A stretch of DNA of 64,000 nucleotides from Bacteroidales bacterium (GTDB lineage: Bacteria; Bacteroidota; Bacteroidia; Bacteroidales; FEN-979): positions 2,268 through 66,267 of the forward strand of contig JADGPR010000008.1 in the NCBI GenBank assembly GCA_017882335.1, written 5' to 3'. Shown piece by piece: positions 8,772-19,730 of the stretch. Numbering within the stretch: the first letter of the stretch is position 1; each line of letters starts with the position of its first letter. The position numbers and the translations under genes were made by a program. A model generated the notes under the pieces. That model was not told the origin of the DNA and ran no database searches. It was given only the letters and a program-made list of their open reading frames with translations.

Positions 8772-10151
8772 TTGTTGAAAAAAAGTGAGTTTATATTATT
8801 GTTCCTCCTGATCATTCTTACTGGAGGATTTGGACAGGGACAAGTGGGCGAAGAAAAACCAAAGCCGCTGACCCGGATTCTTTTTGTTTTTGATGCTTCA
8901 CAAAGCATGTACGGAAGGTGGCAAAGCGATACCAAATTCAACATTGCATCCCGGCTCTTTGTCAACATCCTCGACAGCCTGAAGAATGTCAAAAACCTCG
9001 AAGTTGCATTACGGGTTTACGGACACCAGAAACAATTCCCTCCGCAGGATTGCAACGATACCAAACTGGAAGTCCCGTTTGCTCCTGATAATATCGGAAG
9101 AATAAAGCATGTGCTGAAAACGATCGTACCGAAGGGAACAACCCCGATCGCCTATTCGCTCGAACAGTCGGCGAATGATTTTCCTCCCTGTGATCATTGC
9201 CGCAACATCATCATCCTGATCACTGATGGACTGGAAGAATGTAACGGTGATCCCTGCCTGGTTTCGCATGATCTCCAGAAAAAAGGAATTATCCTGAAAC
9301 CATTTATCATCGGCATCGGCAGGGATTTCGCGGAATCCTTCGATTGCGTGGGCAGCTATTTTGATGCAACCAGTGAAAAGGAATTTACCAATGCTTTGAA
9401 CATCGTTATCTCCCGTGCACTTAACCCAACCACCGCGCAGGTCAACCTTCTCGACCAGTATGGGAAAGCAACAGAAACCAATGTCAACATGACATTTTAC
9501 GATAATGTTTCCGGAAAAGTTGAATACAATTTCATTCATTCCTTTAACAGCAAGGGATTCCCCGATACCCTCGAGATCGATCCCATGTTGACTTATGATA
9601 TCGTGGTCAATACAATTCCCCCGGTGCGGAAAGATTCCGTAAAACTGACACCCGGCAAGCATAAGATCATCGGGATCGAGACCCCGCAGGGATACCTGGC
9701 ATTCAAAACTAACGGTAATTCAACCATTAAATACCTTCCTGTACTGATCCGCAGGAAAGGAGACAGGGAAACGTTGAATGTCCAGCAGTTTGACCAGGTT
9801 GAAAAATACCTTACCGGCAGCTATGATGTAGAAGTGCTCTGCCTGCCCAGGATCCAGGTGAATAACGTGGTGATCGCGCAAAGCCATACGACGACGGTTG
9901 AGATACCGGTTCCCGGCATGGCGGTGATCCAGCGTACAACCAATGGGTATGGAAGTGTTTACATTGAGGATAAAGGCCAAATGACTTGGCTATACAACCT
10001 GAAGGACAATCTCCAGCAGCAGGAAAATCTTTTCCTTCAGCCGGGAAAGTACAGGGTGGTATTCCGGTCAAAATTTTCAAACCGCTCAGAATTTACTACA
10101 GAAAAGTCGTTTGTCGTGGAAGCCGGGCAAACGGTGAATGTTAAACTGTAA
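8772..10151 (+). CDS. Secreted von Willebrand factor A domain protein
   Basis: Signal peptide; MIDAS DASQSM, GTTPIA, LITDG; beta-rich C-terminal region. Confidence 0.85.
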   Translation: MLKKSEFILLFLLIILTGGFGQGQVGEEKPKPLTRILFVFDASQSMYGRWQSDTKFNIASRLFVNILDSLKNVKNLEVALRVYGHQKQFPPQDCNDTKLEVPFAPDNIGRIKHVLKTIVPKGTTPIAYSLEQSANDFPPCDHCRNIIILITDGLEECNGDPCLVSHDLQKKGIILKPFIIGIGRDFAESFDCVGSYFDATSEKEFTNALNIVISRALNPTTAQVNLLDQYGKATETNVNMTFYDNVSGKVEYNFIHSFNSKGFPDTLEIDPMLTYDIVVNTIPPVRKDSVKLTPGKHKIIGIETPQGYLAFKTNGNSTIKYLPVLIRRKGDRETLNVQQFDQVEKYLTGSYDVEVLCLPRIQVNNVVIAQSHTTTVEIPVPGMAVIQRTTNGYGSVYIEDKGQMTWLYNLKDNLQQQENLFLQPGKYRVVFRSKFSNRSEFTTEKSFVVEAGQTVNVKL

Positions 10152-10157
10152 ATGCAG

Positions 10158-10176
10158 CCTGCCTGCCGCAGGCAGG
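10158..10176. repeat. Palindrome CCTGCCTGC-C-GCAGGCAGG (19-bp variant of the 20-bp element)
   Basis: Perfect 9-bp arms; relatives at 18380-18399 and 18747-18770. Confidence 0.85.
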
Positions 10177-10254
10177 GAATTCAGAATGCAGGAATGTAGG
10201 ATTTCAGGAAATTGATGCTGGATGCTGGATATGTGAGTGTGGGACCGGGAAATG

Positions 10255-10280
10255 ACCCCGTAGGGGTGAAATTATTCTAG
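10255..10280. repeat. REP-like element core ACCCCGTAGGGGTGAAATTATTCTAG, 2 nt before an ATG
   Basis: Reverse complement matches unit 4 of the 39554-39790 array at 25 of 26 positions. Confidence 0.85.
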
Positions 10281-10282
10281 AG

Positions 10283-11239
10283 ATGAAGGAATATACTAAT
10301 ACAGGATCAAAAGATACCCGCTCGGGATTCGGGGAAGCCTTACTGGAACTTGGAAAACAGAACCCGGACGTGGTGGCACTTTGTGCCGACCTTACCGGTT
10401 CAATGAAAATGGATGCCTTTGCAAAAGCATTTCCTGAACGGTTTTTCCAGGTTGGCATTGCCGAAGCAAATATGATGAGCATAGCAGCCGGAATGACGAT
10501 AGGAGGGAAGATTCCCTTTACGGGTACGTTTGCCAACTTCTCAACAGGTAGGGTTTATGACCAGATCCGCCAATCCATCGCCTATTCCGAAAAGAATGTG
10601 AAGATCTGTGCCTCCCATGCCGGTGTTACACTGGGTGAGGACGGCGCCACACACCAGATCCTGGAAGATATCGGACTGATGAAGATGCTTCCGGGAATGA
10701 CTGTGATCAATACCTGCGATTTCAACCAGACAAAGGCCGCAACCCTTGCCATCGCCAAACATATTGGCCCGGTTTACCTGCGTTTTGGCAGGCCGAAGGT
10801 TCCGAATTTTACGCCTGCTGATTCGGAATTTGAGATAGGGAAAGCCATCCTGCTGAATGAAGGAACCGATGTTTCAATTTTCGCTACAGGGCACCTGGTA
10901 TGGAAAGCGCTGGAAGCAGGTAAAATCCTGGAAAAAAATGGGATTCACGCCGAGATCATCAACATCCATACTATCAAACCTCTGGATTGTGAGGCCATAC
11001 TTGCATCCGTGTCAAAAACCGGTTGCGTTGTCACCGCTGAAGAACACATGATGAACGGCGGATTGGGTGATAGCATTGCTCAGTTACTCATTCGGGAAAA
11101 CCCCTTACCCATGGAAATGATTGCCGTGAATGATCAGTTCGGTCAGAGTGGGAAACCGGAAGAACTCCTGGTAAAATACGGACTTGAAGCAGCAAACATC
11201 GTAAAGGCTGTTCAGAAAGTCATGTCAAGAAAAAAATAG
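10283..11239 (+). CDS. Transketolase, C-terminal (pyrimidine-binding) subunit
   Basis: ADLTGS, GIAEANM, GEDGATHQ, GPVYLRFGR, EEH..GGLG. Confidence 0.93.
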   Translation: MKEYTNTGSKDTRSGFGEALLELGKQNPDVVALCADLTGSMKMDAFAKAFPERFFQVGIAEANMMSIAAGMTIGGKIPFTGTFANFSTGRVYDQIRQSIAYSEKNVKICASHAGVTLGEDGATHQILEDIGLMKMLPGMTVINTCDFNQTKAATLAIAKHIGPVYLRFGRPKVPNFTPADSEFEIGKAILLNEGTDVSIFATGHLVWKALEAGKILEKNGIHAEIINIHTIKPLDCEAILASVSKTGCVVTAEEHMMNGGLGDSIAQLLIRENPLPMEMIAVNDQFGQSGKPEELLVKYGLEAANIVKAVQKVMSRKK

Positions 11240-11273
11240 AAACCGGACGGGAATCCCTGCATCCTGTCCACTG

Positions 11274-13253
11274 TTATATTGGAATATGCCTGCCACCATT
11301 GTTTTCTCCGTTCCTCGTCAATAACTGGGGTGCCTCTTTGTCGATAAAGAGAGGTACTGTTTCGATGGTGACGTTACTGGTATCCAATCCCAATGACCTT
11401 ACTTCGGTTATCCCAAAGCGTTTCAGGATGGAATAGAGATCCATGATGAACTGTTCACGTGGGGGGAAATCAAAATCATAATTCTGGATACGGTCGATCA
11501 GTACAAAGCGGAAGTCGCTCGGGATATCGAACTTACGCAATGAATCATACCGGCTGATCAGGTTGATCTCATTGTTCCTGCTCATCTCCTCGATAACCTG
11601 CCTAAAAAACAGGTTGATCCTCGGCTGTACCTTGAACCCGATCTTGAAATCGATCTTAAATAGCACATCAGGGATTAGGTGAGTGACACGGTATTCGAGC
11701 ACATGCGGCTCATCCAGGATATCGACATGGAGGAGCCAGTAAACATCGGCTCGCTTCGGTTGCTTACTTAGGATGGAATAAATAACCTTCGATTCAACAT
11801 CGCTGGATTTATTGGCCTTGGTCAGGAATACCAGATTCGTGGCATATTTCGGAATGGATTCGTCTTTGCTGATGGCGGTGATGACTTCATAATAATTTTC
11901 GATCTTAATGAATTCGATGAAACTGTTCTTGATCTTCCTTCCGCTGAACCAGACATACATGACCACGAACAGGAATCCACCCAAGAGAACCGTAAACCAA
12001 CCTCCATGTACAAATTTATTCAGATTGGCAACCAGGAATGAACCTTCAATGGTAAGGTACACGCAAAGTAACAGGAAAATGAGATAAACCGGGATCTTAC
12101 GGTAATAAAGATAAGTGCTGAGAAGAATGGTGGTCATCAGCATGGTGACCGTAATGGATAATCCATAAGCGGCCTCCATGTTTGAGGAGCGCTGGAAGTA
12201 CAGAACGACGAAAAAGCAGCAGGCATAAAGCAGCCAGTTGATGCTGGAAATGTACATCTGCCCTTTGATATTCGTCGGGTAGTTGATCTTGATCTTTGGC
12301 CAGAAATTCAGTTGAATGGCTTCGCTGATCAGGGTATATGAACCACTGATGAGCGCCTGGCTGGCTATGACAGCTGCGAGGGTTGAAATGATAATGCCGG
12401 TAACCAGGAACCAGGAGGGCATGATAGAGAAGAAAGGGTTGGTCCACTCATATACCTGGTCGGTATGGTTCAATATCCATGCTCCCTGCCCCAGGTAATT
12501 CAGTATAAGAGCTGATTTTACATAGATCCAGGTGATCCGGATGTTCTTCAGTCCGCAATGTCCCAGGTCGGAATACAAAGCTTCAGCCCCGGTGGTACAC
12601 AAGAATACCGCTCCAAGCAAGACAAACCCGTGTGGTGATTTTGTGAGAAAAAGATAGGCGTATTTTGGATCCAATGCCTTGATGATCGACGGGTATTGCA
12701 GGATCTGGATCACGCCAAGCGTTCCCAGCATAAAAAACCACAGGAACATGATCGGGCCAAACGATTCGCCAACCGCTTTGGTCCCGAATTTCTGGATAAA
12801 AAACAATAGTGTGATGATAATAAGTGCAATGGGAACCACGGGTATTCTCGGGTTGATGTTGATCAGGCCTTCCACTGCAGAAACAATAGTAATGGAAGGT
12901 GTGATCACGCCATCGGCCAGCAGGAAGCATCCCCCGATGATGGCAAAAACAAATGCCCATTTTGCTCTTTTACGGATCAGGGCGAACAGGGAGAAAATCC
13001 CGCCTTCCCCTTTATTGTCGGCCCGCAGAGTGATGATGATGTACTTAACAGTGGTCTGCAACGTCAGGGTCCAGAAGATACAAGACAATCCTCCCAGGAT
13101 GAAATTTGTACTGATGGTGTCGGCACCATAAATGATGGCCTTCATCACATACAATGGGGAAGTACCTATATCACCGTAAACGATACCCAGTGTAATCAGC
13201 AAACCGGCTGCGGATACAGTTGAAATATGGCTTTTGTGCATTAACCTTCTCAT
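11274..13253 (-). CDS. kup: KUP/HAK/KT potassium uptake permease
   Basis: GIVYGDIGTSPLY, ADNKGEGG, DGVITPSI, TGAEALYSDLGH, AAYG; ATGA-coupled to the upstream dedA gene. Confidence 0.95.
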   Translation of the reverse strand: MRRLMHKSHISTVSAAGLLITLGIVYGDIGTSPLYVMKAIIYGADTISTNFILGGLSCIFWTLTLQTTVKYIIITLRADNKGEGGIFSLFALIRKRAKWAFVFAIIGGCFLLADGVITPSITIVSAVEGLININPRIPVVPIALIIITLLFFIQKFGTKAVGESFGPIMFLWFFMLGTLGVIQILQYPSIIKALDPKYAYLFLTKSPHGFVLLGAVFLCTTGAEALYSDLGHCGLKNIRITWIYVKSALILNYLGQGAWILNHTDQVYEWTNPFFSIMPSWFLVTGIIISTLAAVIASQALISGSYTLISEAIQLNFWPKIKINYPTNIKGQMYISSINWLLYACCFFVVLYFQRSSNMEAAYGLSITVTMLMTTILLSTYLYYRKIPVYLIFLLLCVYLTIEGSFLVANLNKFVHGGWFTVLLGGFLFVVMYVWFSGRKIKNSFIEFIKIENYYEVITAISKDESIPKYATNLVFLTKANKSSDVESKVIYSILSKQPKRADVYWLLHVDILDEPHVLEYRVTHLIPDVLFKIDFKIGFKVQPRINLFFRQVIEEMSRNNEINLISRYDSLRKFDIPSDFRFVLIDRIQNYDFDFPPREQFIMDLYSILKRFGITEVRSLGLDTSNVTIETVPLFIDKEAPQLLTRNGENNGGRHIPI

Positions 13254-13915
13254 TCCTGTGTTTGTGTTTTTTTGCGTTCTGCAATATTTTTGATCACAGT
13301 AATGACCACGGGGAGAAGCGAAATGATGATGATCCCCAGTATAACGAGTGTGAAATTATTTTTGACATAGGGGAGATTCCCAAAGAAATATCCTCCGAAC
13401 GCAAACAGGTTGACCCAAATGATGTTCCCGATGATGCTGAACGAAAAGAACCGCATGTATTTCATGGTCCCGACTCCGGCAACAAAAGGTGCAAAGGTAC
13501 GTATGAATGGCATGAACCGGGCAATAATCAATGCCTTTCCTCCATGCTTCTCATAAAATGCATGCGTCTTGATCAGGTATTTCTTTTTTATCAGTCTATA
13601 GTTTTTATCATACACTTTCATCCCCAGGAACCGGCCAATGAAATAATTGGTGTTATCTCCGGAAAAAGCAGCTGTTATGAGCAGGAAAACAATAATCACG
13701 ATATTCAGCGGATGGGATTCTTTGGCAGCAAATGCCCCGGCAGCAAAAAGCAACGAATCTCCAGGAAGAAATGGAGTTACCACAAGCCCGGTCTCACAAA
13801 AGATGATGAGGAAAAGGATCAGGTAGGTCCAGTTCTGATAATTATGAATCCATCCTTCCATAATGATATCAATGTGGAGGACAAAATAAATCAGTTCATT
13901 TATCAGATTCATCAT
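13250..13915 (-). CDS. dedA: DedA family membrane protein
   Basis: ETGLVVTPFLPGDSLLFAAG, GDNTNY, ARFMPFIRTFAPFVAG. Confidence 0.92.
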   Translation of the reverse strand: MMNLINELIYFVLHIDIIMEGWIHNYQNWTYLILFLIIFCETGLVVTPFLPGDSLLFAAGAFAAKESHPLNIVIIVFLLITAAFSGDNTNYFIGRFLGMKVYDKNYRLIKKKYLIKTHAFYEKHGGKALIIARFMPFIRTFAPFVAGVGTMKYMRFFSFSIIGNIIWVNLFAFGGYFFGNLPYVKNNFTLVILGIIIISLLPVVITVIKNIAERKKTQTQE

Positions 13916-13943
13916 CCTGTTGTGGGTTTCCTGAAAAAACGTG

Positions 13944-13951
13944 CAAAGTTA
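13944..13951 (-). promoter_or_regulatory. Bacteroidetes sigma-A -7 element for dedA-kup
   Basis: TAACTTTG (TAnnTTTG) about 28 nt upstream of the dedA start. Confidence 0.6.
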
Positions 13952-13998
13952 CACTTTTAATTAAGTTCATATTCCAATGGGGAAAAAGAAGTTTTTAC

Positions 13999-14124
13999 CT
14001 ATATTTTATGATGAATGGATGGCTGTCCGAATCGCTTGGCAACTTTGCCCAATATTTTGGCAGCAACCAATATGATCAGCAAACTAAAGATCAGGGGCAA
14101 CTGGAAGTTTATCTGTTGAAACAT
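13999..14124 (-). pseudogene. 41-aa ORF resembling the N-terminus of a CPA2 cation:proton antiporter (remnant or small protein)
   Basis: Hand translation: MFQQINFQLPLIFSLLIILVAAKILGKVAKRFGQPSIHHKI*; below the ORF-track cutoff. Confidence 0.55.
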
Positions 14125-14226
14125 GGACAGTGAGGCGTCAGGAAATTTAGGATAAAATTAATTCTTTTTATTCAAACCACTTTTAAAACCCTTATTTTTG
14201 TCGGGAAACAAAAAAACCACCGTAAA

Positions 14227-14874
14227 ATGCCTTCCAGCCATCATAACCAGCTGAATGAGATCGTCGAACTGATCATTGAAGCCAATCCAGGAAAACTCCT
14301 GGATATCGGAATCGGGTTTGGAAAGTATGGCTTCCTTTCACGTGAATACCTCGAACTCTGGGATCCGGATGCGGTTTATGGTTCACACAAACGGCAAATC
14401 GATGGAATCGAAGCCTTTGAACCTTACCTGACACCGCTTCACCGGCTCATCTACGACCGCATCTTCACGGGTGATGCAAAGGAAATATTGCCTGAATTAA
14501 ACGATCGTTACGACCTCATCCTGATGATCGATGTTTTTGAACATTTTACATATGAAAATGGGCTGAAGGTGCTTGAAGAATGCATGCGGTGCGGAAGAAA
14601 TATCCTGATCTCGGTTCCCAGGGTGATGTCGGTGCAAGATGAGGTCTATGGCAATCCATACGAAACCCACCGCTACAATTGGAAAAGGAGAGATTTTTCC
14701 GGCATCCCGGATAAATTCTTTCTTTACAATGCCGAATCAACAATCTGTTTCATCGGGGAAGACAGCCAACGCATCTGCGGGATCCTGAAAAAAAGAAAAC
14801 ACAGAAGAATCCTGATCCGGATATTGGAACTGACAGGACTCAAAAAACCATTGAAATACATATTTAAACATTAG
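14227..14874 (+). CDS. Class I SAM-dependent methyltransferase
   Basis: LLDIGIGFGKYG motif I, DGIE, YDLILMIDVFEH; TATTTTTG promoter at 14193-14200. Confidence 0.85.
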   Translation: MPSSHHNQLNEIVELIIEANPGKLLDIGIGFGKYGFLSREYLELWDPDAVYGSHKRQIDGIEAFEPYLTPLHRLIYDRIFTGDAKEILPELNDRYDLILMIDVFEHFTYENGLKVLEECMRCGRNILISVPRVMSVQDEVYGNPYETHRYNWKRRDFSGIPDKFFLYNAESTICFIGEDSQRICGILKKRKHRRILIRILELTGLKKPLKYIFKH

Positions 14875-15061
14875 AAGTCCTCCTGTTCACCTCCTTTTTA
14901 TTCTTATATGCGCCTGGGCCTATCCGGCAGAATTCAATTGTATCATTTCGAAGAAAAAGCCTGTCTGAAAAGTTATTTTTGGGTAGCTTTTTTTCGCATA
15001 GCTCAAGCAACATATTATTTTGATATATTTGTTAAATATTAATCAGAACAATAACAAAAAA

Positions 15062-15451
15062 ATGAAAATACAAATACGATCAGGATTTTATTTCCTTTTA
15101 CCAATTGCCTCTCTCATCTTCTTTTTGTTACTTATTCCCCCGGGATGTAAGAACTATAACGAAGTGGATCTATATCCTCCCTGTGATACGGTCAATGTGA
15201 CCTATTCTGGTGACATACAGCCGATTATTTTTGCCAACTGTTTACCCTGTCATAGCGTTGCGAATAAATTTGGCGGAGTGATACTGGCTGTTTTGGACAG
15301 TGCCAGGATACCGGCCAGGAACGGCCTGTTACTGAAAGCCGTCACACACGATCCTGGTGTGATTCCGATGCCGAAAGGTGGAGGTAAACTATCCGATTGC
15401 GATATTGCGAAAATCAGGCGCTGGATTGCCCTTGACGAACCTGCAAAATAG
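15062..15451 (+). CDS. Small monoheme c-type cytochrome, probably a lipoprotein
   Basis: Hydrophobic leader ending PPGC; heme motif CLPCH; distal PMP Met; LSDCDIAKIRRWI terminal helix. Confidence 0.75.
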   Translation: MKIQIRSGFYFLLPIASLIFFLLLIPPGCKNYNEVDLYPPCDTVNVTYSGDIQPIIFANCLPCHSVANKFGGVILAVLDSARIPARNGLLLKAVTHDPGVIPMPKGGGKLSDCDIAKIRRWIALDEPAK

Positions 15452-15502
15452 GTCAGATTTTCAGGTGAAAGAAATCAGTAATCATCCATCAAGATATCAC
15501 AT

Positions 15503-16387
15503 ATGAAAATATTTTTACTATCATTCTGTTTAATAAATTCCTGGATTCTCTGTTCGCAGACAACAGATACTTTAAGGCATAAACGGTCAGGATCAACAAT
15601 TTATACAGAAGAAACATTCAAATCTTCAAGGGTTATCCTTGGACAATCTATTGAAACACCACCTAACGGTGCATTAACAATCCTGATTTCCCACCATTTT
15701 GGGGCATTAAACACCGGGGCTTACGAGTTATTTGGACTTGACCAGGCCAGTACAAGAATTGGACTCGAATACGGGATTAATGATTTCATAGGGGTTGGAA
15801 TCGGCAGAAGCACATACCGCAAAACCTTTGATGGTTATCTGAAATTCAGGGTACTGCGCCAGAGCAAGGGAAAAAGAAACATGCCGCTGTCCATTTCTGT
15901 TTTTGGGAACATGGCAGTCAATACGCTTAAACTGAGTGATCCCAAGGAAAAAGACTATTTTGATGCCAGGTTGTCCTATTGTACTGAACTGATATTGGCC
16001 CGGAAATTCGGTAAGGTTTTTTCACTTCAGATTGCATCGACGTGGGTACACAAGAACCTTGTTGCCACACCGGAGGACCATAATAACCTGTTTTCAATCG
16101 GTACCGGGATCAGTTTCAGAATCTCGGATGTGATCTCCCTGAATGGTGAGTATCATTACCTGATCTCTGGCCAGCATTTGAGTGAAGTGACCAACTCTGT
16201 TTCCATCAGTTGTGATATCAAAACCGGTCAGCATGTTTTCCAACTGTTCTTGACAAATTCACAGGGTAACTTTGAGCAGGCGTTTATTACAGAGACTGCA
16301 GGAAAATGGTATAACGGGGATATTTATTTTGGGTTTAATATTCACCGCCTCTTTACCCTAAAATATCCCAAGGTACAGAAAAAATAA
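15503..16387 (+). CDS. DUF5777-like outer-membrane beta-barrel protein
   Basis: TFKSSRVI..QS, ISHHFG, FGLDQA, TGQHVFQLFLTNS, GFNIHRLF, recalled as typical of this family. Confidence 0.75.
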   Translation: MKIFLLSFCLINSWILCSQTTDTLRHKRSGSTIYTEETFKSSRVILGQSIETPPNGALTILISHHFGALNTGAYELFGLDQASTRIGLEYGINDFIGVGIGRSTYRKTFDGYLKFRVLRQSKGKRNMPLSISVFGNMAVNTLKLSDPKEKDYFDARLSYCTELILARKFGKVFSLQIASTWVHKNLVATPEDHNNLFSIGTGISFRISDVISLNGEYHYLISGQHLSEVTNSVSISCDIKTGQHVFQLFLTNSQGNFEQAFITETAGKWYNGDIYFGFNIHRLFTLKYPKVQKK

Positions 16388-16428
16388 AAATTTCCTCAAA
16401 TCTAATTTTCAGCAGGTTCTCCCGTGGT

Positions 16429-17130
16429 TCATACCTGTGGTGGCTGCCCTACCACGATCCTGAAATTAAAAAACGGATGCTGTAATGTGGTCATAATACG
16501 AACCCATATTGGAAGCATCTGCTCGGTTCCCCGTGCAGTCGTGATGTCGCCAAGGTCAAGTATATTTTCATCTTTCCACCCAAAGGTGATCAATAACCCC
16601 CGGATTTTTAATTTTGCTTCAGTGTCATTGCCACCCAGGAAAACGGTATGATCTCCCGGAACCAGTGAAGGGTTGACCATCAGGTAAGCATTCATGGTTT
16701 GCAGGCTCTTTACCACCTTTGTTTCAGGAAATGCGCGCTGGATTTGTTCTCCCAATGAATCAGTATTGCTGACCGACAAGCTTGGAGGCATTCCCTTGGA
16801 AAAATCCAGGGGATTGGAAACATCGAGAAGTATCTTGTTCTTCATGTTTTCCTTCCCTGCCTGTTCAAGGGCATTGAGGGAACCCATGCCATTGGTGGCA
16901 TTGACGATGAATTCGCCGAAGATTGCTGCATCTGCGAATGTGGCAATTTTAATATTTGCATGACCTGAATACCATTCGCCGAAAGCGGGTCGGCCAAACA
17001 TATCTTTTCCCGTCGTTGCAAGCGCTTTTTTAACATCGCGTGTTCCCATGGTAACATCATGTTCCAGCGCTGCCAATTTTTCTGCAATAGTCTGCCCGAC
17101 CACACCTGTACCTAATACTGCTATTTTCAT
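16429..17130 (-). CDS. NADPH-dependent F420 reductase-like (F420_oxidored) oxidoreductase
   Basis: IAVLGTGVVG Rossmann motif, DVSNPL, SLGEQIQ, VVKS, DLGDITTARGTE. Confidence 0.85.
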   Translation of the reverse strand: MKIAVLGTGVVGQTIAEKLAALEHDVTMGTRDVKKALATTGKDMFGRPAFGEWYSGHANIKIATFADAAIFGEFIVNATNGMGSLNALEQAGKENMKNKILLDVSNPLDFSKGMPPSLSVSNTDSLGEQIQRAFPETKVVKSLQTMNAYLMVNPSLVPGDHTVFLGGNDTEAKLKIRGLLITFGWKDENILDLGDITTARGTEQMLPIWVRIMTTLQHPFFNFRIVVGQPPQV

Positions 17131-17398
17131 ATTTCTTGGGTTTTATATGATAAAAATTATTGATTTTAAGTTTTCACAAATATACCTTTAATAGGAGGTT
17201 TTGTCAATGAATTTTATTCGTAATACTCAACCTGATTCCCTTTTAAAGTTTTGATAACTTTTATTCATAATATTTTATGGATTTATGATTGTTTTCTGTT
17301 TTATTTTTAACAGGTTCTAAAAAGATTAACTATTTTTACCATTATTAAACATTAATTAAAAGAATTACACACTTTATGTATAACTAAAAACAAAACTT

Positions 17399-18235
17399 AT
17401 GAAAAAGATTTACTTAATGGTATTGGCTATCTGCATGATGGCGGGTACTCTAAATGCCCAAAAAGCTTACATTCGCCTGGGTGTTGGCGGTGGTGTCGGA
17501 CTCAAACAATATGAGGGTACCACGTGGGCCGATGAAACCCATACGAGTACCACCGATAATTTTGTGATTAAATCTATGGGATTGGGCAGTGGTTTTAATG
17601 CAAATCTGGCTTTCGGTTTCATGCTATCAAATTATGTTGGAATTGAGCTTGGTGTAAATGAATTCATTGGGCTTGGCAACAAAATTCATAGCTCCTCAAC
17701 CACCAGCGGTTTTGATTTATCTTCGGATTCAAAACTTTCGGGGATGATGTTACAGATCGTTCCGGCTATTATTATTACTCCCGGGCTCGAAAAGGTCAAT
17801 CCTTATGCAAGGTTAGGAATGAGCGTTGGCATCCTTCCGTCGGTTGTTATGAATGACAATTCAACTACTACCGGTGGTGAGTCATTAAAAGCCACATCCA
17901 GTTCTGAAACTACAATAAAACTTTCTGGTGGTATTGCGCTTGGTTTCACCGCGGCTGGTGGGATTGATTTTAATTTGAGCGAGAGACTGACATTTTTTGG
18001 TGAATTTGTTTTCAATGGGATCACCTATGCACCGGCAAAAGGGAAATTTACGAAATGTATAATTGACGAGGTTGATAAGTTACCAACGCTGACAACCAGG
18101 GATAAAGAATGGACCTTTGAAAAGAAATATGACACCGATGAACTTATTCCGGAGGGTAGCCCAGATAAAAAACCGAAAATGTCAGTCAATTTCAGTAATG
18201 TTGAACTGAATATTGGAATAAAATTCAAATTATAA
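17399..18235 (+). CDS. Outer-membrane beta-barrel protein
   Basis: Signal peptide ending LNA-Q; alternating amphipathic strands; C-terminal IGIKFKL. Confidence 0.75.
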   Translation: MKKIYLMVLAICMMAGTLNAQKAYIRLGVGGGVGLKQYEGTTWADETHTSTTDNFVIKSMGLGSGFNANLAFGFMLSNYVGIELGVNEFIGLGNKIHSSSTTSGFDLSSDSKLSGMMLQIVPAIIITPGLEKVNPYARLGMSVGILPSVVMNDNSTTTGGESLKATSSSETTIKLSGGIALGFTAAGGIDFNLSERLTFFGEFVFNGITYAPAKGKFTKCIIDEVDKLPTLTTRDKEWTFEKKYDTDELIPEGSPDKKPKMSVNFSNVELNIGIKFKL

Positions 18236-18286
18236 GTCCACTCCAAAAAGTCGGAGCGATCAGACTAATTAATGTCCGTCTATAAT

Positions 18287-18332
18287 TCCCCCATCTTATT
18301 AATAATCGTAAGATTTTTGATGAGGTGGGGGA
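18287..18332 (+). terminator. Long hairpin with GTAA loop between the OMP gene and tRNA (terminator or stabiliser)
   Basis: CCCCCATCTTATTAATAATC-GTAA-GATTTTTGATGAGGTGGGGG; about 20 bp with G-U pairs that form on the + strand. No strong U-tract. Confidence 0.5.
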
Positions 18333-18379
18333 TATTGATACAACGAGCTGTCTCCCGACAACCCGTAATTCATAATTCG

Positions 18380-18399
18380 CCTGCCTGCCGGTAGGCAAG
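18380..18399. repeat. 20-bp palindrome variant CCTGCCTGCCGGTAGGCAAG inside a CGTAATT heptamer array
   Basis: Two mismatches to CCTGCCTGCCGGCAGGCAGG; removing it restores cgtaatt-cataatt-cgtaatt-cgtaatt. Confidence 0.85.
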
Positions 18400-18419
18400 T
18401 AATTCGTAATTAATTTTCG

Positions 18420-18493
18420 TGACCCCGGCGGGATTCGAACCCACGACCCACAGCTTAGAAGGCTGTTGCTCTATCCAGCTGAGCTACGGGGCC
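18420..18493 (-). tRNA. tRNA-Arg (anticodon TCT), CCA not encoded
   Basis: GGCCCCG-TA-GCTC-AGCTGGATA-GAGC-A-ACAGC-CTTCTAA-GCTGT-GGGTC-GTGGG-TTCGAAT-CCCGC-CGGGGTC-A folds as a full cloverleaf. Confidence 0.97.
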
Positions 18494-18722
18494 AATTCTT
18501 AATAAACTCTCTTCCAATTCCACTTTTCAGATATATTTCTCTTTTCCTTTCTTCTGTTCGGGTAGAGAATGATTCAGTAAACAGTACTTTCCATGGTTTA
18601 TAGAACCGGGTGGATTTGGTTTTTCCATTATTATGTTCTTTGATCCGACGTTCCAGATCAATTGTCATACCAATATATACTCTCTTATAAGTTTCACTTT
18701 CCAAGACATAGACGATGTACAT
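18471..18722 (-). CDS. Small stand-alone GIY-YIG nuclease (UPF0213-like); 3' end runs into the tRNA
   Basis: YIVYVL..YIGMT..LERRIKEHN..REIYLKSG; last codons (WPRSSAG*) are tRNA sequence and the stop TAG is in the D-loop. Confidence 0.9.
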   Translation of the reverse strand: MYIVYVLESETYKRVYIGMTIDLERRIKEHNNGKTKSTRFYKPWKVLFTESFSTRTEERKREIYLKSGIGREFIKNWPRSSAG

Positions 18723-18731
18723 AAGCAATAA

Positions 18732-18790
18732 TTAGAAGGCTGTTGCTCCCTGCCTGCCGGCAGGCAGGGATCCAGCTGAGCTACGAGGCC
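18732..18790 (-). pseudogene. Duplicated 5' half of tRNA-Arg with a palindrome inserted in the D-loop
   Basis: GGCCTCGTAGCTCAGCTGGAT-[CCCTGCCTGCCGGCAGGCAGG]-GAGCAACAGCCTTCTAA; identity ends exactly at the end of the anticodon loop. Confidence 0.9.
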
Positions 18791-18802
18791 TGATCTGGGC
18801 TG

Positions 18803-18810
18803 CAAAATTA
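18803..18810 (-). promoter_or_regulatory. -7 promoter element driving tRNA half / GIY-YIG / tRNA
   Basis: TAATTTTG about 12 nt upstream of the tRNA fragment's first G. Confidence 0.65.
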
Positions 18811-18988
18811 GAAAAATTTAAGTTACTAACAAGGATAGCTGCTATTGCTGAAAATTCTAATTTTGTAACAAGGAATGAAAAAGGTACCCTGCAATGCCGG
18901 AATAAGCAACAGCTTATCTACTGCTGACTGTGAATTTAAGTAAGTTTAATATTTATCGAATGCGTTTACCTTTTAAATCTTTATTGAC

Positions 18989-19531
18989 ATGAGAATCTTG
19001 AAAGACAGGTCCGCTGCGTTGATCATCGATATGCAGGAACGGTTGTATCCGTTCATTTTTGAAAATGAAATGCTCACAAAAAATGTATCGAAACTTATTG
19101 AGGGCCTGAAAATAATCGGGGTTCCTATTTTTATCACGGAACAATATGTGAAAGGGCTGGGACCAACCATCGAACCGGTTGCAACGCTTCTTGGAAGCCA
19201 TCCCCGCATTGAGAAAATGTCATTCAGCTGCTGCGACGAACCCCGCGTAATGGAAGGGATTGCCGTTACCGGAAAGGAAAACATCATCATCGCCGGCATT
19301 GAAAGCCATGTTTGCGTATTGCAAACCGTTATCGACCTCAAACGCAACGGATATCATCCCGTTATAGTGGAAGATTGTGTTTCTTCCCGCCATGAAAATG
19401 ACAAGAGGATGGCCATTGAACGGATGCGTCAGGAAGGTGCAATCATAACGACCTGCGAATCCATCTTGTTTGAACTCTTACGTTATTCCGGCACAGAACA
19501 ATTCAGGGGAATATCAAGACTTGTGAAATAA
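18989..19531 (+). CDS. Isochorismatase/cysteine hydrolase family protein (YcaC-like)
   Basis: IIDMQERL, TEQY.KGLGPT, EKMSFSC, GIESHVCVLQT. Confidence 0.9.
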   Translation: MRILKDRSAALIIDMQERLYPFIFENEMLTKNVSKLIEGLKIIGVPIFITEQYVKGLGPTIEPVATLLGSHPRIEKMSFSCCDEPRVMEGIAVTGKENIIIAGIESHVCVLQTVIDLKRNGYHPVIVEDCVSSRHENDKRMAIERMRQEGAIITTCESILFELLRYSGTEQFRGISRLVK

Positions 19532-19617
19532 ATTTGTAAAGTTTGTAAAGTTCATAAAGTTTAGAAAGGTTAGACATAATTATGAAGTATTGGCATTACA
19601 CCATTTCGCCATTTTAT

Positions 19618-19704
19618 ATTGCGAGGAGCGAAGCGACGAAGCAATCTCCTGTAGTTATCACAAACAATTGTCATTGCGAGGAGCGCAGCGACGAAGCAAC
19701 CCCC
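19618..19704 (+). repeat. Two direct copies of a ~33-bp REP-like element (GTC)ATTGCGAGGAGCGMAGCGACGAAGCAAYCYC
   Basis: Copies at 19618-19648 and 19670-19703; inverted partners at 22589-22672. Confidence 0.88.
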
Positions 19705-19730
19705 AGAGTAACTTCGCTATTTGATACCTT

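Follow-up and report, generated by a model that had tools for sequence, protein, structure and literature searches.

Single-domain GIY-YIG proteins of about 94 aa named Ssn (CDD cd10448) have been reported to cut only single-stranded DNA (ssDNA) beside a hairpin repeat called NTS or SRM, according to the main text of the work describing them (Chenal et al, 2025, Nat Commun, PMC11893778). The same text describes this repeat as an inverted-repeat hairpin of 20–50 nt, which flanks the ssn gene, is scattered elsewhere in tens to hundreds of copies and differs between lineages; an oriented flank of the hairpin is crucial for SsnA, and the NTS-ssnA-NTS arrangement was likened to IS200/IS605 and to repetitive extragenic palindromic (REP) sequences with their REP-associated tyrosine transposases (RAYT) (PMC11893778). 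Here, we analysed a stretch of 64,000 nt from a Bacteroidales genome, hereafter the window, in which an open reading frame (ORF) for an 85-aa single-domain GIY-YIG nuclease is accompanied by copies of the 20-mer CCTGCCTGCCGGCAGGCAGG, a perfect palindrome. One of these, the home copy, belongs invariably to a cassette that resides in tRNA-Arg genes. The secondary copies were inserted exactly, adding 20 nt (also 19 or 21 nt) without target duplication, and lie mostly in short tandem arrays. The palindrome is probably the cognate hairpin repeat of the nuclease, the two working like the Ssn/NTS pairs, and we infer that the nuclease has spread it. The genome holding the window (G000; the other genomes are numbered likewise) has a size of 3.13 Mb in 123 contigs and a G+C content of 44%, and the window corresponds to C94:2268–66267.

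The window protein resembles Ssn in being a bare GIY-YIG domain, and its gene is likewise flanked by hairpin copies (at 18749 and 18380) of a repeat dispersed at 64 loci of G000. What sets it apart from Ssn is the embedding of its gene in a tRNA-Arg cassette, where the hairpin splits a displaced tRNA half. The words “tRNA,” “Bacteroid,” and “tandem repeat” are not mentioned in the main text of PMC11893778, and in the sampled part of the literature on GIY-YIG proteins with tRNA-Arg, D-loop or homing, with Bacteroidetes palindromes, or with RAYT/REP, the tRNA-Arg cassette was not described, the nearest case being T4 SegB.

The cassette lies on the minus strand. Following a conserved upstream stretch, it contains the displaced tRNA-Arg piece GGCCTCGTAGCTCAGCTGGATC (18769–18790), spanning acceptor stem to D-loop; the home copy (18749–18768; as for the other palindrome copies, no strand is assigned), placed after the last base of the D-loop and before the 3′ D-stem strand in the displaced half; the second displaced piece GAGCAACAGCCTTCTAA (18732–18748), which begins with the 3′ D-stem strand and ends with the anticodon loop; a 9-nt leader read from the sequence (18723–18731) that connects this piece to the ATG; the ORF of 85 aa (18471–18728, with the ATG at 18722 as probable start); and the intact tRNA-Arg(TCT) (18419–18493). 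The home palindrome is thus 26 nt upstream of the ATG. At its 3′ end, the ORF overlaps the tRNA by its last 23 nt and takes its stop codon, TAG, from the tRNA D-loop. The upstream stretch, gttagtaacttaaatttttctaattttgca (18800–18834, minus strand), is also present upstream of empty tRNA-Arg(TCT) loci in sister species and is a probable tRNA promoter, presumably akin to the Bacteroidota −7 box TAnnTTTG. The ORF matched PF01541 over residues 3–69 (E 7.4e-16) and no other domain; its nearest solved structures were the single-domain UPF0213 proteins 1zg2 and 1ywl (E about 1e-5), and an NCBIfam search assigned no family, returning one sub-threshold match only. It is the only small GIY-YIG gene in G000. 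In one metatranscriptome run (X20), all contigs at this locus fell on the upstream gene or the tRNA and the ORF had none, which bears neither way on expression.

The intact tRNA-Arg reads GGCCCCGTAGCTCAGCTGGATAGAGCAACAGCCTTCTAA, and the displaced copy, which covers roughly the first 38 nt of tRNA-Arg, reads GGCCTCGTAGCTCAGCTGGATC, palindrome, GAGCAACAGCCTTCTAA. Apart from the insertion, the two differ by two substitutions, with A to C beside the insert and, in the acceptor stem, C to T. The home copy with its flanks (18747–18770) forms a perfect 24-bp palindrome. Furthermore, a 297-nt unit (18490–18786, minus strand), corresponding to one repeat unit of the cassette, was missing in related strains: contigs from the metagenome runs X3 and X5 fuse 18489 to 18787 and skip these 297 nt, and X3 holds the filled form too. 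Empty tRNA-Arg(TCT) loci without cassette were found in seven sister species (G009, G005, G011, G008, G006, G003, and G012), and G010 has retained the displaced tRNA half with the palindrome, the ORF being absent. The empty loci of the sister species and the joints skipping 297 nt together indicate that the cassette has been inserted and that close relatives are polymorphic for it.

The same arrangement was found far beyond this genus. The best homologue among the relatives is in G033, a member of another family, with 55% identity; it is present as two tandem units at tRNA-Arg(ACG), each preceded by GGCTCCGTAGCATAACTGAATA, a perfect palindrome and GTGCATCTGAC in the layout of G000. We then took the 20 closest homologue loci from a sample of the order, all in other families. 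Eighteen neighbour a tRNA-Arg (ACG, TCG, CCG, or CCT), one neighbours a tRNA-Leu and one is at a contig end. A CCTGCC-type palindrome was present at 15/20 loci at the same D-loop position, and wherever the displaced tRNA half exists, the palindrome directly follows ...RATA and precedes the 3′ D-stem strand. At the D-loop spot, degenerate or interrupted remnants were seen in 4/20 loci (G122, G170, G241, and G334) and none in G225b. When one genome per species was scanned for the junction of RATA, palindrome and G, at least 120 records were obtained. Among these, 80 listed loci were examined: the 5′ context of a tRNA, under a strict pattern, was present in 49, an intact tRNA-Arg was within reach in 48, and in 35 a GIY-YIG ORF starts 11–106 nt downstream. 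By record title, these 80 loci comprise Bacteroidota (50), Omnitrophota (12), several lineages of Patescibacteria, Planctomycetota, Chlorobiota, Verrucomicrobiota, and Pseudomonadota, and some of those in other phyla are dispersed copies within tandem arrays. Beside every tRNA-Arg isoacceptor, the palindrome was at one and the same tRNA position, in many families and several phyla. The initial annotation had treated the tRNA fragment as a pre-existing sequence; a remnant hit by chance does not agree with a fixed part of a cassette that always has the palindrome at one D-loop position. Cassette units are tandemly amplified in G033 and G149. Tandem runs of up to eight GIY-YIG copies within a few kb were also seen in G053, G201, G282, and G005, some with internal stops, which suggests local amplification of cassette units.

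The initial annotation had reported three copies in the window, each interrupting a recognisable sequence without target duplication. When the window was searched for CCTGCCTGCCGGCAGGCAGG with up to three mismatches, a perfect copy was found at 18749–18768 and one with two mismatches, CCTGCCTGCCGGTAGGCAAG, at 18380–18399, against 0.00 expected from 100 shuffles. The third copy, CCTGCCTGCCGCAGGCAGG (10158–10176), is a 19-nt variant that escapes a mismatch-only search because one central G is missing, and it was detected as C94:12425–12443. It is located 7 nt past the stop of a 459-aa ORF, where it splits a short tandem array of 7–8-mers (10151–10207, plus strand) of the aatgcagg/aattcag type; its excision joins aatgcag to gaattcagaatgcaggaatgtagg and restores the array. 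The copy at 18380–18399 lies 19 nt past the 3′ end of the intact tRNA-Arg and splits in phase a cgtaatt/taattcg heptamer array (18365–18413, no strand assigned); its excision joins cgtaattcataattcg to taattcgtaatt with the heptamer phase kept. Contigs of two further runs, from related strains, likewise span this copy. In run X2, one contig joined 18768 back to 18379 via 11 other letters, a repeat-induced and ambiguous joint. All three copies, the two restored arrays and the 24-bp palindrome were thus as the initial annotation had them. Its statement that excision restores the tRNA D-loop with one substitution was right as to the D-loop and to the A to C beside the insert, and the acceptor stem carries the further C to T.

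The exactness of insertion was evident from three independent comparisons of filled and empty sites. In alaS, G001 (85% identical) reads gatatccagcatccagcatc directly followed by cagtatccagcatccgg, and G000 adds between them exactly 21 nt, CCTGCCTGTCCGGCAGGCAGG, with no other change. In G012 the array is palindrome-free, in G008 the corresponding position holds a degenerate 21-mer, and G011 and G007 are without the array. Within G000, a repeat in which GCAGATTTATCGCAAA is followed by TTTTCGCAGAAAAG occurs in 12 paralogous copies filled with exactly 20 nt at this joint and 19 empty copies, with no intermediate lengths. The displaced tRNA half compared with the intact tRNA-Arg showed neither duplication nor deletion at the insert. 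A 7-bp duplication would be invisible in a period-7 array such as that of alaS, so it is the non-periodic tRNA D-loop that settles the absence of a target duplication; none was found in alaS, the tRNA D-loop or the cgcag repeat, in agreement with the initial annotation. Terminal repeats around an internal sequence were not present either, the unit being one palindrome.

Further copies exist throughout G000, as the initial annotation had anticipated. Their number depends on how they are counted: 5 are exact, 57 lie within three errors (one regular expression), an overlapping regular expression gave 70 clusters, and a two-arm criterion gave the 64 loci used here. The centres, in a list that also includes unrelated loose matches, were GCCGGT (19), ACCGGC (12), GCCGGC (8), GCCGGAC (7), GCCGC (4), GCGGC (3), and GCCGGCC (2). 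With up to one mismatch, the palindrome was found in 18/41 relatives, and in the order-wide sample it was present in 64/401 genomes and 47/236 genera, with none for a reversed control pattern. Copy number varied from 0 to about 55 between related genomes. The genes beside the palindrome loci in G000 were evenly oriented (++ 18, +− 18, −− 14, and −+ 13); a terminator role was considered and ruled out by this even distribution and by the copies within genes.

Most secondary copies are associated with short tandem arrays. Tandem Repeats Finder (TRF) returned 2396 hits in G000, merging to 1910 loci with 1250 canonical unit types, and the commonest periods were 7 (722 hits) and 8 (431 hits). A TRF array was found ≤12 nt away at 26/64 palindrome loci, and further loci have just one or two flanking units. 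At the intergenic site orthologous to the 10158 copy, the arrays differ in every species of the genus: G004, G001, and G012 have other arrays and no palindrome, and G008 has a perfect palindrome in phase within a different 10-mer array. Because the arrays differ at such orthologous sites, only presence or absence of the palindrome is readable there, and coding and paralogous sites were therefore compared instead. Arrays were also seen in the window at 10151–10240, 18365–18413, and 19530–19560.

Copies inside genes are mostly of the 21-nt form. Of the 11 loci of this length in G000, 9 lie within open frames of at least 300 aa, compared with 1 of the remaining 53 loci. In alaS, the insert is at residue 399, within a single Pfam match to tRNA-synt_2c (residues 6–572), and in a peptidase S46 gene it is at residue 371, within one Pfam match spanning 22–734. 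The mutS insert comes after domain V, downstream of the last Pfam domain match, and in an asparaginase-like protein the insert directly follows the signal peptide. The 21 nt translate to SLPVRQA or PACPAGR, flanked by array-encoded SSIQHPA units. The 21-nt form survives in genes because seven codons preserve the reading frame. The arrays themselves also sit in frame inside genes, for example, DIQHPASSIQHP in alaS. In addition, two gene pairs of G000, which are possible fusions, read through as a single open frame over an array-palindrome-array linker, a uvrA-like gene with another uvrA-like gene (C96:8845–13869) and a NifS-like with a SelD-like gene (C81:11343–13559).

Other small GIY-YIG genes are accompanied by other palindromes. 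Those beside tRNA-Met in G034 and G029 go with the 16-mer palindrome TCCGCCAGCTGGCGGA, which in displaced tRNA pieces takes the place of the D-arm or of the 3′ anticodon-stem strand plus variable region, and which also occurs within fragments of tRNA-Val, tRNA-Cys, and tRNA-Met elsewhere; still other small GIY-YIG genes go with TCCCGA..TCGGGA-type palindromes or with GACGAAACCGAAGGTTTCGGC. In a FastTree phylogeny of 76 proteins, palindrome type required 3 changes against at least 7 in each of 200 shuffles, a result that shows clustering only, since 37 of the 76 rows had been gathered via the palindrome itself. The 16-mer was considered as a second dispersed family and rejected, being of low copy with at most 10 loci, in 7/41 genomes. 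In G028 (L062–L066 and L069–L070), it also caps a longer hairpin-like element that is itself repeated. More generally, GC-rich perfect palindromes other than the 20-mer replace parts of displaced tRNAs near small GIY-YIG genes beside tRNA-Met, Pro, Gly, Val, or Cys (L018 in G034, L023 in G029, L019 in G021, L022 in G005, L026 in G013, L060–L061, and L067). At L020 (G025:C3), a tRNA-Val(TAC) array contains interleaved pseudo-copies in which the anticodon arm is swapped for another hairpin, along with two GIY-YIG genes.

The Y1 (HUH) transposase genes of G000 are associated with a different repeat. Three Y1_Tnp matches were found in this genome, and the two inspected, on C5 and C85, were flanked by a hairpin repeat of the tctagaataatgtcacccc-TGCG-gggt type; on C5, one palindrome copy precedes the Y1 gene by about 300 nt. 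The tctagaataatgtcacccc-TGCG-gggt repeat was seen beside these RAYT-like genes at C5:39800–40620 and C85:23680–23870, with four tandem copies after the Y1_Tnp gene on C85, and once in the window at about 10250–10285. The window also contains two repeats of the ATTGCGAGGAGCGAAGCGACGAAGCAATC type at 19610–19710, each after GTCATT, with many copies in G000. In G008 and G001, this repeat brackets a second class of small GIY-YIG genes that is absent from G000, and the pair looks like a more canonical Ssn-type pair.

Other known elements are also close in form. The palindrome resembles the REP/REPIN-RAYT systems as a short multi-copy repeat with a single-copy enzyme gene beside it and patchy copy number among relatives. 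It differs from REP/RAYT because the enzyme is GIY-YIG and not HUH, the Y1 genes of G000 carrying another repeat, and from REPIN because the unit is a single 20-mer and not a REP doublet and because copies are also intragenic. It is unlike miniature inverted-repeat transposable elements or classical insertion sequences in having neither a target-site duplication nor terminal inverted repeats around an internal sequence. Rickettsia palindromic elements, of roughly 100–150 bp, are found in frame in protein-coding genes; the 21-nt copies are like them in this respect and unlike them in size. In Nostoc, repeats of 21–27 nt were reportedly proposed by Elhai and colleagues (Genome Res, in 2008; work cited in PMC3116915 and PMC5861425) to be mobile, in genomes said to be rich in heptamer tandem repeats; we know of no enzyme proposed for them, and their phylum and sequences are different. 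Homing enzymes of the SegB type contain a DNA-binding domain. The free-standing GIY-YIG homing endonucleases share with the present gene its position beside tRNAs, its presence or absence at one site and the tandem amplification of units, and differ from it as the latter encodes a bare 85-aa domain in bacterial chromosomes with a dispersed palindrome. T4 SegB itself is described as a GIY-YIG homing enzyme in a tRNA cluster (PMC2330249).

The reading of the palindrome as the cognate repeat of the nuclease has adjacency and co-occurrence in its favour. In the set of 401 genomes of the order, tabulated by hand, the palindrome was present in 18/21 genomes with a homologue at E ≤ 1e-19 compared with 46/380 others, and a homologue at E ≤ 1e-12 was present in 40/64 palindrome-positive genomes compared with 44/337 negatives, figures that overstate independence because the genomes are interrelated and the metagenome-assembled genomes (MAGs) incomplete. 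The three genomes without palindrome among the 21 are the remnant cases G170, G241, and G334, and in G047 and G418 the sole copy of the palindrome in the genome is that of the cassette. By analogy with Ssn, the nuclease would bind the palindrome when extruded as a hairpin in ssDNA and would nick alongside it; repair of the break by recombination could then copy the palindrome or the whole cassette to sites of short homology, which would be tRNA-Arg genes for the cassette and arrays of like unit for the palindrome; and the ORF may later be lost, the repeats staying behind. In G008, an ORF-less displaced tRNA-Arg(ACG) half keeps the palindrome and a trace of the ORF end, and together with the ORF-less half of G010 it speaks for a loss of the ORF later than the spread of the repeat.

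Besides the relatedness of the genomes, several observations weigh against this reading. Several to many copies were found in G359, G140, G117, G119, G138, and G199 (forward-strand matches numbered 55, 21, and 15 in the first three) with no homologue at E ≤ 1e-12, and the palindrome-rich G008 and G001 are likewise without a close homologue at this threshold. The CCTGCC-type palindrome was within 1.5 kb of only 2/14 small GIY-YIG loci in G359, G140, G117, G008, and G001, and no ORF-less displaced half was found in G001, which is 90% complete. The at least nine phylum labels spanned by the junction loci were read from record titles of MAG contigs, and binning errors among them may inflate the spread. 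In contrast to the Ssn repeat, the palindrome is fully symmetric, only 20 nt long and without a conserved oriented 5′ flank; the published SRM pattern with its oriented GTC flank matched at 0/64 palindrome loci, and had 4 matches in all of G000 against 10–15 in five shuffles. GIY-YIG enzymes are hydrolytic, and we know of no chemistry by which one would insert a 20-nt unit. Finally, the palindrome subtype covaries with the flanking array unit: the 21-nt variant with centre GCCGGAC is in gatgctg arrays 6/7 times, and the T variant is in cgcag and taattcg arrays. Passive gene conversion without a nuclease could explain this covariation; copying of the palindrome into arrays of like unit, as suggested above, would also account for it.

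A spread that is passive throughout, with no enzyme of its own, is in our judgement rather unlikely. Recombination or gene conversion between like arrays and tRNA repeats would then move the palindrome, and the cassette would keep a copy, for example, to split a 38-nt direct repeat and so avert deletion of the ORF. The covariation just described, the one repeat family with both filled and empty copies and the palindrome-rich genomes without a close GIY-YIG gene agree with this, but it leaves unexplained the identity of both the 20-mer and its D-loop position beside five Arg isoacceptors from several phyla, the seeding of new array types and unique sites, and the tracking of nuclease clade by palindrome type. 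The fixed position of the insert in the most conserved part of tRNA-Arg could instead mark immunity to homing, the enzyme targeting the intact D-arm of tRNA-Arg, the palindrome protecting the displaced copy by disrupting it and the dispersed copies being a by-product. Such a role, to which we give little credence, would suit the presence/absence polymorphism of the cassette at the same site, its tandem amplification in G033 and G149 and the precedent of SegB in the tRNA cluster of T4 (PMC2330249); against it, the same genome has an undisrupted D-arm in the intact tRNA downstream, the 85-aa protein is without a separate DNA-binding domain, and the constancy of the disrupting 20-mer is left unexplained.

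Two further accounts were weighed. Mobilisation by a Y1 (HUH) transposase in the manner of REP/RAYT, with the GIY-YIG adjacency incidental, appears very improbable: IS200/IS605-type chemistry typically inserts without target duplication and G000 has three Y1_Tnp matches, one with a palindrome nearby on C5, but the Y1 genes are directly flanked by the tctagaataatgtcacccc-TGCG-gggt repeat, adjacency and co-occurrence favour the GIY-YIG gene, and a single perfect palindrome of 20 nt has no distinct left and right ends. We can hardly credit a selected, immobile hairpin with a host function as a terminator, mRNA stabiliser, or protein-binding site. In its favour, the unit is GC-rich and mostly intergenic, and some copies have A/T-rich flanks; the even orientations of neighbouring genes, the copies inside alaS, the peptidase S46 gene, and mutS, the filled and empty sites between sister species and between paralogues, and the range of copy number between related genomes all speak against it.

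The pairing of the palindrome with the GIY-YIG nuclease is the reading we prefer, and the feature as first observed is real. The interpretation given in the initial annotation was right in outline and is partly supported. Filled and empty sites exist as it had supposed, in the 21-nt difference of alaS, the filled and empty repeat copies and the empty tRNA-Arg loci. Its link between a dispersed unit and a GIY-YIG gene holds through the adjacency at 15/20 loci, the co-occurrence, which is strong at genome level, and the lineage-specific palindromes; the inspected Y1 genes have another hairpin repeat beside them. A constant 20-mer occurring in many phyla is at odds with the suggestion that the units mark repair scars. 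Two copies do flank the GIY-YIG gene in the window (18380 and 18749); this is not the rule, as palindromes on both sides of the ORF were seen at 2/20 closest loci (G226 and G387) and the usual layout has one upstream. The proposed analogy to REP/RAYT with another enzyme class has already been published as a concept for Ssn/NTS in the main text of PMC11893778. What is new here is the hairpin class, the cross-phylum tRNA-Arg cassette with a fixed D-loop palindrome, and the in-frame coding insertions. A more far-reaching combination of these elements is put forward only tentatively: the 20-bp palindrome might be the smallest known mobile DNA unit, moved in trans by the 85-aa GIY-YIG protein, whose gene might cross phyla in the form of a homing cassette for tRNA-Arg genes, the universally conserved tRNA sequence providing the homology arms, with the D-loop palindrome marking the point of action of the enzyme and the system seeding in-frame insertions of seven codons in essential genes.

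Pairs of a small GIY-YIG protein and a hairpin repeat were described only in 2025, and this locus adds a second, simpler class in which the repeat is a bare symmetric 20-mer. The clean filled and empty pairs indicate that the unit enters DNA exactly and without target duplication, even in frame in essential genes, and in different phyla the conserved cassette places the nuclease gene within tRNA-Arg genes. The cassette supplies a defined substrate, the palindrome with its tRNA flanks, for probing how such enzymes act and spread, and may represent a further programmable ssDNA-cutting specificity.

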